From NCBI GenBank assembly GCA_964016885.1, contig OZ024742.1, positions 137,516,001 to 137,580,000 on the forward strand: a stretch of 64,000 nucleotides of DNA. Reading direction: 5' to 3'. Of the stretch, positions 26,166 through 59,714 are shown in pieces; positions within the stretch are counted from its first letter, which is position 1, and each line of letters opens with the position of its first letter. The translations under genes and the position numbers were made by a program. The DNA is from Eledone cirrhosa. Taxonomy: Eukaryota. The notes below the pieces were generated by a model. That model had not been told where the DNA came from. It made no database searches and worked only from the letters and a program-made list of their open reading frames with translations.

Positions 26166-26757
26166 ATATATATATATATATATATAGAGAGAGAGAGAGA
26201 GAATGATGGAGATCGGCTGCTCCATATAAAACTCGACCACTTTATGTCAGTTCCTTCCTTGCATGAGATCTAGAGTGGCTTTTGAGTCCTGAAAGCATGT
26301 GAAACACCCGACCTCAAACAATACAATGCTGTTTCATTTCCTTCTTGTTACCACTTTCGGTTTGTTTACTGTGTATGTTCAGATATCGCTTCAATCCATC
26401 AGCTGATTAGCAAATTATATATTTATATGTGTATATTTCCGAATATATATACATATGCATACAGACGCGCGCGCACATACGTCATACACACACACACACA
26501 CACACACACATACACACACACACACACACACACACACACACACACACACACACACACACACACACACACACACACACACACACACACACAGATACACGTA
26601 CACGCATAGCACTGGAATTGATTCTCTCCAACAAAGTTGGACTTTACCTTCATGTGCTCGTTGGTATGACACCAGGCCAGCTTCCGAAAAGAACAACATA
26701 GGGCACAGAGTGCGTTTGAAAACTAAGGCTTGATAAGATTCATCATTATTACTGTTG

Positions 26758-26940
26758 GTGGATTGGCAGTACCGGTAGAGAGTCTGGCGTCATGCTTTGT
26801 AGCAAAGTGTTACGGCCCTTTATGGTCTGAGTTCAAATTCCGCCGAGGTTAACTTTGCCTTTCTTCCTTACGGGGTTGATAAAATAAAGCACCAGTAATA
26901 CACTGATATAATTGCTGGCCTCGTGCCCAAAATGGAAACA
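26758..26940 (+). mobile_element. tRNA-type SINE (ATT-target family)
   Basis: gagttcaaattccgccgaggttaactttgcctttc..gaaaca, with TSD att(a/g)ttactgttg. Confidence 0.85.
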
Positions 26941-27089
26941 ATTGTTACTGTTGGTCTTATTCTTCCGCAATTTTCTTTTCAGTTCTGCATGTTTAACCCT
27001 CTCCATTTCAAATACTTTAACTTCATTCCAACTGACATTTTTCCATGCTACTCTCTCCACTGCACGTTGTTCAAGATTTTTGTAGAATA

Positions 27090-28960
27090 TATTAAGGTGT
27101 TTTAAATTGGCTTTTAGAAAGTCTCAATATCACCCCTTTGGCTTACTATCAAACCTTTCGACCAGCTTAAGTTCACCATAAATATTTTTGGGGGAATGCG
27201 TCAGTCACCCATACGAATCATGTGACCTGTTCATCTTAACTGATTCCTAATAAGCATAGTTTGAGTAGATGTACATTTTACCCTAGCAAGAATCTCAAGG
27301 TCTTGAACGAACGTGTTCCAGCTTATCTTGAGTATATCCCGGAGGTATTTTTGCCGAAACAGCTGCTACATGTTAACATGAATTGTGTACAACGTCCACG
27401 TATCGGATGAATACAATAGTCTCCAATGTAATGTGACGTTGTGACCATACTTTAATTTCTAGTACACCAAATGCTTTTGCTGTTTTTTTGTATACAAGAT
27501 GTGATTTCAGTATCCAATTTGCCATCAGTTTGTATCATACTGCCAAGGTATTCGAATAAGGTCACCGTCCTTAGCATTATGCCCTTAAAGAGGGTTTGAG
27601 GTGGAGTTGTCTGCTCCCCAGGTGCTGGTTGATGTATTACAACAGTCTTTTTCAAATTACTTATAAGACTAACCACATCACAAGCAGCGTAGAAACCACT
27701 GATCAGGCTTTGCAAACCCTCCTCAGTGCAACTTATTAGGTCTCAGTCATCTGCATATAGAAGGTCACGGATCAAAGAGGTGAAGAGTTTAGAGTTGAAT
27801 TTCGTTCTAATTGAAAACATTACCTGAAGAGCAATATCGGATAAAGACTCCGTCTGTCGATGATCCAAAGGCATTTCACAGCATCACCGGAAAATAGATT
27901 ATTCCATTTTCCAATGCGAACGGTTCTGAAAGAGTACCAACAAAATCAATACGGGCTTCATATCCATATTAACAAACTTTTCAGAGCAGCCAAATATTTT
28001 CAATATCAACCACAATGGAGTCCTGGTAATAGTGTTGAACGCGTTGTTAGGTCTACAAAGTAGTGATATAACCCCATGTTTTACTCCATGCATTATTTTT
28101 GTAGCTGGTGGATAGTGAAAATCATGTCAACTCTCCCACGAGAGGGGCGAAAACCACACTGTGATTCTGACACAGCTTATGCAACGATGGATTTGTCAAT
28201 TCATTATGAAGAAATACACGACAGTACCTTTCCAACAACTGAAATAGAAATATGCCCCGAAGGCTACTACAGAAATCTTTAGGAACAGACTTAAAAAGTG
28301 ATATTAAATTAGCATCGACCCAGTCCTGTGGCTCTTACTCCGCTCTCCAACAATGCAAAATAATGAGTGATGCATTTCGTTCAGCCTTTGTCTGCCAAAT
28401 TTCAATATTTCTGAAGAGGCAACATCTAGATACGGGAGTATTATTGTTATTTAATTTCTTTACAGTTGTGGTGATGTCATCTACTGAAGGCTCAGAAGAC
28501 ATTTCTTTGATGACTGGAAGGTTGTTCTTTCTCTCAATTATGTCAGTAGTCACACTTGATTGACTGATAATCAGATCAGTGTAGTGCTGCACACTACATT
28601 TTTGTATGGATATGATATCTGTAAAGAGATATTATCCATTAACGGATCTCACAGAGGATATTGCTGTTGCTCTAGGACCAAATACCTCTCTTATGAAAAG
28701 AACGCTTTAAATTATTTGCGGTCTGCAGCTGCTTGTGTTTCATTGGCTTTCTGTTGCCACCAATTTACCTTCATTTGCGAAGAATGATCTGAATTTTGGA
28801 TTTCATAGCCTTAAACATTCTGCTTTTGTTGAAATTTCCGGACTTTACTAGAATGTGTTTACACATCTCTTGTTTTTCATGCAGATGACTGGACACCTCT
28901 ATGTCATTATCAGCAAACAATCATCCACCTTCTTGGAGTTGTAACCCAAATGCTTGATGC
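27090..28960 (-). mobile_element. Degraded RTE-clade LINE (RT region)
   Basis: Minus-strand peptides SQCGFRPSRGRVDMIFTIHQLQK, IRDLLYADD and NLKKTVVIHQPAPG..FEYLGS..LDTEI, with many stops and frameshifts. Confidence 0.8.
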
Positions 28961-29079
28961 AACTTCATCGAGAGTATTGCTCATAAGTCCACCGAGAAAA
29001 CTTTTCAACAACATAGGGGAGTTGAAGCTTGTAGTGTTTATTCTCTTCAGTACTTTAGATCCCGCCTTTCTGATTTTTT

Positions 29080-29440
29080 ACCTCATTGACAAATTTCATT
29101 TTCCCCTAACAAGCCTATGGTACGACATTTTCATTTGTGACGTGTCTTGTGTAGGTGATTCCTAGGATTCTTCTATAACATTTCATCTCCATTGTTTGTA
29201 TCTTCTTTTGCAGTTCTGTGATTAAGGTCCATGACTGACTCACATGTGTTTAGAAAGATGAATGGGACTAACCCACGCATGATTTTTGCATTGCATCTGA
29301 GAGTGGTGTTTCTGTCTTTCCAGAGTGGACTCAATTTGGAAAGTGCCGTGGCTGTTAGAGCACGTCTTGCAAGAAAATCTCAAATCGAAGAAAGCCTTCA
29401 TATTATCCAATGTTTCTGGGAATGTTTTGGAAGAATCTAG
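29080..29440 (-). mobile_element. RTE-like RT C-terminal fragment
   Basis: Minus strand reads SWTLITELQKKIQTMEMKCYRRILGITYTRHVTNENV. Confidence 0.65.
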
Positions 29441-58283: not shown

Positions 58284-58346
58284 GTATAATAATAATAATA
58301 ATGACTGAGATTCAAGGAATAATAATAATAATAATAATAATAATAA

Positions 58347-58532
58347 TTGTTTCTACTTAGGCACAAGGCCAGCAATTATCCAGTGCATTACTGGTACTTT
58401 ATTTTATCGACCCCGTAAGGATGAAAGGCAGAGTTAACCTCGGCGGGATTTAAAATCAGAAAGGCAAGGGCAGTAACTCTATACGTCAAAGCATGGCGTC
58501 CCATCCTCTACCGATACTGCCAATCCACCGCC
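58347..58532 (-). mobile_element. tRNA-type SINE (ATT-target family)
   Basis: Full-length reverse copy inside (AAT)n. Confidence 0.9.
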
Positions 58533-58569
58533 CTCTATAATAATAATAATACTAATAATAATAATAATA

Positions 58570-59440
58570 CGCTTTTGGAACACTTCAAAAGGCATGCTTG
58601 CTGGGAACAGCAAGAACCCTCCGATACGTCCTGAATATCTGAGGCTGCAGGTAGGGACTTGATATTCATTTCAACAAACATTCCAGTTAAATAACATCAA
58701 TCACTGAGACTCAAAGAACAAGGAAAAAAGATCGTGCCTGATTGTGTATGTGGCCTGCCCATTCGACACGAGATTGCAAGAGAAGGAGAGGGAGAAAATT
58801 TACCGATACCAGGACTTAAAGTGGGAGGTAAAAAGGATTTGGAACTGCCATGAAGTCATAGTGGTTCCGATTGTCATAGGCGCACTAAGTACTATCTCAA
58901 AAAGTTTATAGGGATGGTTAAAGAAAATTGGCCCCTTCACGCTTTTTGGAACGCTTCAAAAGGCCTGCTTACTGGGAACAGCAAGAACCCTCCGATACGT
59001 CCTGAATATCTGAGGCTGCAGGTAGTGGCTTGATATTCATTTCAACAAACTTTCCAGTTAACTAACATCAATCACTGAGACTCAAATAATAATAATAATA
59101 ATAATAATAATAATAATAATAATAATAATAATAAGAGAGGAGAAAATTAACCGATACCAGGACCTAAAGTGGGAGGTGAAAAGGATCTGGAACTGCCATG
59201 AAGTCAAAGTGATCCCGATTGTCATAGGCGCACTGGGGACTATCTCCAAAAGTTTCCAGGGATGGTTAAAGAAAATCGGCCACTTCACGCTTTTTGGAAC
59301 GCTTCAAAAGGCATGCTTGCTTGGAACAGCAAGAACCCTCCGATACGTCCTGAATATCTGAGGCTGCAGGTAGTGGCTTGATATTCAATCCAACGGACTT
59401 TCCAGTTGACGAACACCAATGACTGAGATTCAAGGAATAA
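58570..59440 (+). mobile_element. Three short 3'-end fragments of R4/Dong family A
   Basis: About 58570-58720, 58721-59084 and 59134-59440, each with KACLLGTARTLRYVLNI* and the 3' UTR. (AAT)n lies before the first, between the last two and after the third. Confidence 0.88.
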
Positions 59441-59714
59441 CAACGATAATAATAATAATAATAATAATAATGTTTTCTTTATTAACCACAAGGGTTCACA
59501 TAAAGTAGACATTAAGGACAGTACAGGACAATACAGGACGGTACAAATGGGCATTTCTGCGTGTAAAAAAACAGAGGTTGAAATAAAATAACAAAGAAAA
59601 ATTCCCCAATAGGAGGGAGACTTCCGAGGGACATTTGTGGAGAAAGCCCATTAAAAGACCACAGTGGCCCTGACCACCAGGGCAAGTGCCCTCTCCCAGT
59701 TTTCCACCCTTAAT

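Follow-up and report, generated by a model that had tools for sequence, protein, structure and literature searches.

The SINE and LINE copies of the window

We analysed a stretch of 64,000 nt of the Eledone cirrhosa genome (the window, G000:C3:137516001-137580000, within a genome of 3.0 Gb). It contains six copies of a short interspersed element (SINE) of about 185 bp, two copies of a long interspersed element (LINE) of the L1/Tx1 type, hereafter Tx1, and several Dong/R4-like pieces. A first-pass annotation of this sequence had proposed that the SINE and the Tx1 element form a target-specific pair sharing a short 3' end. The SINE copies, with their target site duplications (TSDs), and the Tx1 features are the following.

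26758..26940, plus strand: SINE, near full length, older (84% identical to the copy at 33.1 kb); TSD 26745-26757 / 26941-26953, 13 bp with one mismatch
33103..33285, plus strand: SINE, full length, GAT stem variant; 18-bp TSD 33084-33101 / 33286-33303; tail-to-tail with a Dong-like LINE
45044..45148, minus strand: SINE, 5'-truncated; 13-bp TSD 45158-45146 / 45043-45031, the final bases of which overlap the start of the truncated SINE
49122..49297, plus strand: SINE; 9-bp TSD 49116-49124 / 49298-49306, overlapping the SINE start
53828..54002, minus strand: SINE with the canonical tail, then (ATT)3; hairpin and spacer at 53852-53828
58348..58531, minus strand: SINE within an ATT tract, between two Tx1-like copies
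59472..64000, continuing to about G000:C3:137581331, minus strand: L1/Tx1-type LINE of subfamily A (Tx1-A), about 5.9 kb
59472..59496, minus strand: 3' signal of this LINE, with a predicted 4-bp stem, a CTTGT loop, AATAAA and 16 nt from the loop to the ATT tract
55917..58284, minus strand: second Tx1-A copy, 5'-truncated, 2.4 kb, 94% identical to the first; (ATT)5AT at the 5' junction (58302-58286) and (ATT)12 at the 3' end

The TSDs that had been described as starting with ATT, at 26.8, 33.1, 45.1 and 49.2 kb, were all found where they had been placed, and the two further copies said to abut (ATT)n do so (those ending at 53828 and 58348). The SINE end quoted by the first-pass annotation is present, but it is exact in only one of the six window copies. 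Both LINE copies stop at (ATT)n (59472 and 55917), as had been noticed; the quoted Tx1 end was wrong in that it takes in the first A of the ATT tract, which put the earlier alignment one base out of register.

The second open reading frame (ORF2) of the first Tx1-A copy starts at 63132; stop codons and, near 60870, a frameshift interrupt it. (ATT)8 follows the copy, and before it lie an ATT tract and a subfamily B tail. The domains of ORF2 are an APE endonuclease (PF03372), a reverse transcriptase (RT, PF00078) and a zf-RVT (PF13966). The closest of the solved structures is human L1 ORF2p (E 1e-41, residues 17-737), followed by R2, which matches in the RT only (E 4e-22). The sole named homologue of the protein comes from Argonauta hians (56% identity), a match that fits an octopod host and does not bear on the clade name. 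By its domains and its closeness to L1, the LINE belongs to the L1/Tx1 group. Its assignment to Tx1, and not to some other branch of the L1 clade, is putative and follows from a likeness to Xenopus Tx1 motifs and from the target specificity described below.

The smaller element has the size and dispersal of a SINE, being shorter than 700 bp, non-coding, dispersed, present in high copy number and flanked by TSDs. Its exact 24-nt tail has 150,743 matches in the genome, and the copies are 85-98% identical to the family majority sequence. The family includes a long and a short form, which differ by an internal deletion. We found a B box (GTTCAAATC) and, by eye, an A-box-like stretch (TGGCAGTATCGG), with the strict A-box pattern unmatched. 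The SINE is likely tRNA-headed; a search of its head with ARAGORN and Rfam gave zero tRNA or family matches. The body may resemble that of Deu/Nin elements. Ohshima and Okada reportedly described, in 1994, tRNA-derived octopus SINEs named OK, OR1 and OR2, and the present family may be one of these. We do not class it with the MetaSINEs, which carry a 66-bp Meta-domain after the head, as a comparison by eye showed no likeness to the bivalve Meta consensuses (PMC4824008, supplement file 2). An older sister SINE combines the same body with another tail (window 15735-15950; loci L061, L104, L107, L110 and L253). This tail is longer and ends near CCATAC/ATAC repeats, and no ATTAT end was seen by eye in 15 rows (including one duplicate and two rows from a tandem array). 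The sister SINE shows a tail swap and likely has a different LINE partner.

Target sites of the SINE and of the Tx1 subfamilies

To count target sites and TSDs we used 71 tail-bearing SINE copies, 65 from an unbiased sample of 60 evenly spaced 10-kb stretches (600 kb in total) and the six of the window. The five bases that follow the tail are A, T, T, A and T in 64, 66, 63, 61 and 62 of the 71 copies, respectively; the background frequency of ATTAT is 0.27% per position. TSDs of at least 12 bp were found in 29 of the 71 copies, against 5.5% for mismatched flanks. An informative TSD of 10-20 bp accompanies 21 of 45 short-form tails, and ATTAT begins the 5' copy of the TSD in 17 of these 21. Because ATTAT is present on the 5' copy too, it is the duplicated target and not a part of the tail alone. 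The SINE shows target preference, not strict specificity. Tails followed by TATCTATCT account for 44 of the 150,743 matches, and 38 of those 44 still start with ATTAT. At five loci (L113, L095, L116, L074 and L006) SINE copies are stacked head to tail with a shared ATTAT-starting TSD between them, as expected if every insertion re-creates the target.

On the LINE side, ATTAT follows 30 of 30 loci of Tx1-A, a young subfamily (96-99% identity) that was retrieved with a query including two flank bases. ATT also follows subfamilies B, C and F, although the queries for Tx1-B and Tx1-C included 5 and 11 flank bases, respectively, and these samples are biased towards ATT. Full Tx1-A copies are about 5.9 kb long, and among 21 extended copies an ATT tract lies at the 5' boundary in 11, the other 10 being unresolved. 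One Tx1 tail pattern has 13,783 genome matches, of which 299 are at ATTA sites outside tracts. In a set of 30 such loci, 15 are distinct and have a visible 5' end, and 6 of these 15 show an ATTA-starting duplication of at least 13 bp (null 5.6%), two of the six being possibly inflated by a neighbouring repeat. The SINE and Tx1 agree in polarity, in the position at which the TSD starts and in the range of TSD lengths, and differ in tract length, as given below. Their ages overlap (85-98% identity for the SINE, 96-99% for Tx1-A, 83-88% for Tx1-C), and poly(A) is absent after the SINE and LINE copies inspected.

Copies of two Tx1 subfamilies lie at the same ATTAATAATTATTAAT site in another dispersed repeat (L281, L288, L294, L296, L297 and L302), and this site is a recurring non-microsatellite target for several Tx1 copies. 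A few Tx1-A and Tx1-B copies (L154, L159 and L173) have (TTC)n after or before them instead of (ATT)n.

Subfamilies D, E and G are followed by (ATCT)n. They have the 3' hairpin described below, yet (ATCT)n comes after most of the D and E ends. The same repeat also precedes several truncated copies of D, E and G (L192-L221; L086:2880-3165, L092:7915-8220), and (ATCT)n is a second microsatellite target in the same LINE lineage, one that the SINE avoids. The C-termini of ORF2 are 55-75% identical between Tx1 subfamilies. In a tree of 18 C-terminal pieces (two E rows were excluded as too short, and rows L171 and L173 are possibly mixed by nesting), the ATT-followed rows group together at 93/93, which is under the starred level of the tool, with D and E outside.

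A shared 3' tail with a predicted hairpin

The tails of the SINE and of Tx1 are in register and align ungapped over 25 nt. The sharing reported by the first-pass annotation, put at about 22 nt, is thereby borne out and turns out stronger than had been noticed. Over these 25 nt the window subfamily is identical to the SINE tail at 15 positions (by inspection) and the best Tx1 tail at 18. Both have the same layout, in which a CTTGT loop stands between the two arms of a stem. From the end of the loop to the insertion point there are 16 nt in the SINE, Tx1-A and Tx1-C, and 17 nt in Tx1-B.

We trained a 25-nt profile on 17 Tx1 tails, leaving out the SINE, and scored it before all 3,273 ATTAT sites of the 600 kb. 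Scores of at least 5 were obtained at 31 SINE-labelled sites, 4 Tx1-labelled sites and 3 background sites, and two of these three are visible SINE tails missed by the mask. Two of 20,000 shuffles reach the score of the SINE tail on this profile, as do 2 of the 2,986 ATTAT sites that served as background for the ranks.

Minimum free energy folding gives the hairpin with a 5-nt loop for 13 of the 14 Tx1 tails and for two of three SINE variants. In an alignment of 18 rows, 87.5% of the stem cells pair, against 74.1% after shuffling. Covariation is 0.415, against 0.199 in shuffled alignments (0 of 500 shuffles), and the slid controls give at most 0.129. At the second pair of the predicted stem, 13 Tx1 rows have C-G where three of the four SINE rows have G-C, a compensatory swap between the LINEs and the SINE. 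Runs labelled as RNA that were matched with the LINE tail as sole query gave shares of at most 0.05, favouring neither side.

Other LINEs as candidate partners

An RT scan of the collected loci returned Tx1-like, RTE-like, Dong-like and one CR1-like group, and no further group. The tail comparison covered these four groups. A better fit of the SINE tail to another LINE clade, which the first-pass annotation had named as the result that would speak against the pair, was not observed: only the Tx1-like tails matched. In the window the other LINEs are represented by Dong/R4-like copies, a provisional label based on sequence motifs.

33327..37300 (5' end approximate), minus strand: Dong/R4-like LINE, with (AAT)n after the sense strand and the opposite polarity
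38317..43955, minus strand: three stacked truncated Dong/R4-like copies of two families, with 3' ends at or near 38317, 39654 and 40975 and (AAT)n after each

These LINEs share ATT/AAT tracts from the other strand (window 33286-33330, 38258-43955 and 58569-59450). With SINE or Tx1-like copies they form tail-to-tail stacks, and short 3' fragments of Dong-B are stacked three times at 58.6-59.4 kb. The occupation of the same tracts in the window by Dong-like copies is one reason to consider Dong/R4-like or RTE LINEs, both of them common here, as the partner, another being that TAA repeats are given as the Dong target in the accessible text of PMC3812793. We nonetheless hold such a partner to be extremely improbable. 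The repeat after Dong-like sense strands is (AAT)n, which is the opposite polarity, and RTE ends are followed by (GAT)n among the matches listed. The tails of both types score far lower on the Tx1 profile, where they are reached by between 48 and 2,560 of the 2,986 background sites (48 and 2,560 for the Dong-like, 372 and 1,179 for RTE), against 2 for the SINE.

The partner might instead be a LINE from beyond the L1/Tx1 group (L2, Nimb or another CR1 family), extinct or missed by the sampling, with a tail that became similar by convergence. CR1, CR1-Zenon, L2 and Nimb elements serve bivalve SINEs according to the consulted text of PMC11481361, the unbiased sample spans only 600 kb, the youngest SINEs lie at looser sites than Tx1-A and Tx1-B, and the exact SINE tail occurs on no LINE. 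However, the partner behind more than 150,000 copies, active until recently, should be common, and the RT scan of the collected loci gave four groups only. TSDs of 10-20 bp also fit L1-type enzymes, with 15 bp for L1 versus 5 bp for ZfL2-1 in the part of PMC4245944 that covers them. We consider this alternative unlikely.

Weighing the pairing

Several points weigh against the pairing of the SINE with Tx1. The sense strand of a young CR1-like LINE (L076:4200-6220) also ends in (ATT)n, with ATTAT after 29 of 29 ends, so polarity alone is not specific. This LINE is abundant (32,004 first-look candidates, with 97-99% protein identity), and it could in principle mobilise the SINE through the common (ATT)n ending. 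We find this very unlikely, since its tail is at background level on both profiles (608 of the 2,986 background sites reach it) and none of 13 5'-truncated copies inspected by eye has an ATTAT-starting duplication of at least 10 bp. The ATT therefore looks RNA-encoded in the CR1-like LINE, as opposed to target-derived in the SINE. Copies of the CR1-like LINE (L076:4200-6220; L222-L251) have a duplicated 3' segment of 100-135 bp and many long open frames, of up to about 957 aa.

A second group of points concerns the targets. At least five ATT units follow the tail in 0 of 40 SINE copies, 16 of 20 Tx1-A, 16 of 22 Tx1-B and 4 of 22 Tx1-C copies (a "SINE-long" class was left out because its pattern matched short copies too). 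The ten youngest SINE copies (at least 97% identity) have 0-2 ATT units, a poor fit to subfamilies A and B, both young and tract-bound. A third group concerns the tail. The shared signal is only 25 nt long, shorter than in known pairs, and the window and register of the comparison were picked after the match had been seen, which makes the odds from the profile optimistic. The counts are not independent, since relatedness links the 17 Tx1 tails and the SINE copies all come from a single family, and the covariation test is favoured by the kinship of the rows and by the drawing of the structure from those same rows. An A-C mismatch interrupts the stem of one SINE variant that nevertheless made copies (27 of 205 tails, in a set that favours this variant), and only 51% of SINE tails keep the fourth stem pair. 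We searched for a LINE with the SINE's own stem, and all four genome matches to this stem plus AATAAA are SINEs. In the reverse profile test, the best-scoring Tx1 tail comes from an ATCT-targeting subfamily, so that the partner subfamily cannot be read from the tail. Finally, the LINE families were drawn only from the 600 kb and its flanks.

The target logos, whose divergence had been put forward as a reason to abandon the pair, agree over the first five bases and differ in tract length, which makes the ATT branch the level at which the pair holds. The stem variant, the lack of an exact LINE stem and the reverse test, together with tract length, place the partner at this same level. The proposal of a target-specific pair hence stands for the ATT-targeting Tx1 branch; it does not single out the window subfamily, and the SINE is target-preferring. 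We conclude that the partner of the SINE is very probably the ATT-targeting branch of the L1/Tx1-type LINE.

A model for the mobilisation of the SINE

Target-primed reverse transcription by L1-type ORF2p is the established basis for the nicking and priming steps considered here. ORF2p would bind the hairpin on its own RNA or on that of the SINE, a stringent recognition that would replace that of poly(A). To judge by the geometry of the TSDs, the APE endonuclease would cut the bottom strand immediately ahead of ATTAT, so that ...ATAAT is left with a 3'-OH. AUU read through from the donor flank could then pair with the nicked end and prime reverse transcription, and a second nick 10-20 bp away would give the TSD that is observed. 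The target would be re-created by each insertion, which would explain the stacks. To account for the gap in tract length, we propose that a short read-through by RNA polymerase III would let the SINE use any ATTAT, and that the longer (AUU)n of the LINE would favour long tracts. Judging from these sequence comparisons, the whole model, in which ORF2p of the ATT branch copies the SINE through the shared 3' signal, is probably right. The recognition of the SINE RNA through the hairpin, which relies on predicted folds, also seems probable.

The main alternative to recognition through the hairpin is relaxed copying by the Tx1-type lineage, in which only the pairing of AUU with the nicked target would matter and the hairpin-like tail would be the relic of an old tail capture. 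Several observations favour it: the GAT variant made copies although its second stem pair is broken, the stem has just 3-4 bp, AATAAA is absent from the SINE, and at least 7 of the 25 sites set the SINE tail apart from any Tx1 tail sampled. L1-clade LINEs are also generally relaxed, as outlined in the portion of PMC3747384 consulted, with three tail-sharing SINEs for more than 800 LINEs. This alternative does not sit easily with the conservation of the loop and of the 16-nt spacing in both SINE forms and in Tx1 subfamilies that have 55-75% identical C-termini and differing targets, nor with the maintenance of pairing by two-sided changes. We regard relaxed copying as a tentative option of rather low probability.

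Returning to stringent recognition, we lean slightly towards a broader reading, in which stringent recognition of its RNA has been retained, or acquired anew, by an L1/Tx1 lineage of animals. A minimal hairpin and a 16-nt ruler would be the handle of ORF2p, common to subfamilies with different microsatellite targets, and the choice of target would be a separate matter, governed by the endonuclease and by RNA-DNA pairing. The SINE, one of the most abundant in an octopod genome, would then ride the ATT branch by mimicking the structure, not the sequence.

Other features of the window

A repeat finder applied to the whole window gave an output dominated by simple repeats. Long tandem arrays of trinucleotide-based units occupy 10400-12670, 14780-15640 and 47775-49250, and such arrays yield spurious long open reading frames rich in Pro, Thr and His. 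Long imperfect inverted repeats, with arms of 130-700 bp, lie at 19493-24991, 4528-5619 and 51982-52330; they are possibly MITEs or foldback elements.

Comparison with known systems and significance

A close precedent is SINEU / Tx1-Mar of crocodilians, where a SINE was assigned to a target-specific Tx1 group by target preference and overlapping age (Kojima 2015, PMC4494074, from the text available). The SINE studied here is likewise tied to a Tx1 group by its target and by overlapping age. SINEU elements are described in that text as having U1/U2 heads, poly(A) tails and a Mariner target, and according to the same source no LINE with the 3' end of SINEU-1 was found. In contrast, the present SINE has a head of tRNA-like appearance, no poly(A), a shared 3' signal and an ATTAT / (ATT)n target. 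The only Tx1/SINE pair that we found in print, in the sources as available, was drawn from common targets and involves SINEs with poly(A) tails.

Other close precedents are the stringent L1-clade pairs, namely maize ZmSINE2/3 with a monocot L1 lineage and SINEX-3_CR of Chlamydomonas (Ohshima 2013, PMC3747384). In the consulted part of this source, tail-sharing SINEs are rare for the L1 clade (three for more than 800 LINEs, with plant and algal examples). As in these pairs, the present SINE shares with an L1-clade LINE a predicted 3' hairpin with a conserved loop and a variable, compensated stem. The plant and algal pairs share about 45-80 nt, and microsatellite targeting is not described for them in that part, whereas the pair studied here is animal, shares 25 nt and is target-preferring. 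Stringent L2 and CR1 pairs of bivalves and eel resemble it in their short shared 3' stem-loop and simple-repeat end (PMC4824008, PMC11481361 and PMC3747384, in the sections available), but the LINE here is of the L1/Tx1 type.

Microsatellite-specific Tx1 families are documented in the available text of PMC4494074 and PMC3812793: Kibi at (TC)n, Koshi at (TTC)n and crocodilian families at (TTCC)n/(TTTC)n. The LINE studied here is, like them, an APE-type element aimed at a microsatellite, putatively of the Tx1 clade, and the (TTC)n target of Koshi is the repeat that flanks a few Tx1-A and Tx1-B copies here. Unlike those families, for which these texts name no partner SINE, its targets are (ATT)n and (ATCT)n.

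The word "Tx1" is absent from the main texts of PMC11481361, PMC4824008 and PMC5786205, and the accessible text of PMC4824008, PMC4758252, PMC11481361, PMC5786205, PMC3531059 and PMC13282606 names no tail-sharing Tx1 partner. Our search of the literature found no tail-sharing Tx1/SINE pair; Repbase, subscription papers and SINE supplements were beyond its reach. SINEs make up 11.6% of the Octopus vulgaris genome, with partners unnamed in the part of PMC13282606 available.

The SINE and the LINE studied here likely form a pair of a kind already known, but the class of the partner is unusual and the structural signal is minimal. Natural compensatory variants of the 25-nt signal make the reading of RNA structure by an L1-type ORF2p directly testable. 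Sister LINEs that have the same handle and different targets make it possible to test the respective shares of the endonuclease and of RNA pairing in the choice of target. If true, the pairing would name the likely engine of a cephalopod SINE of well over 150,000 copies.

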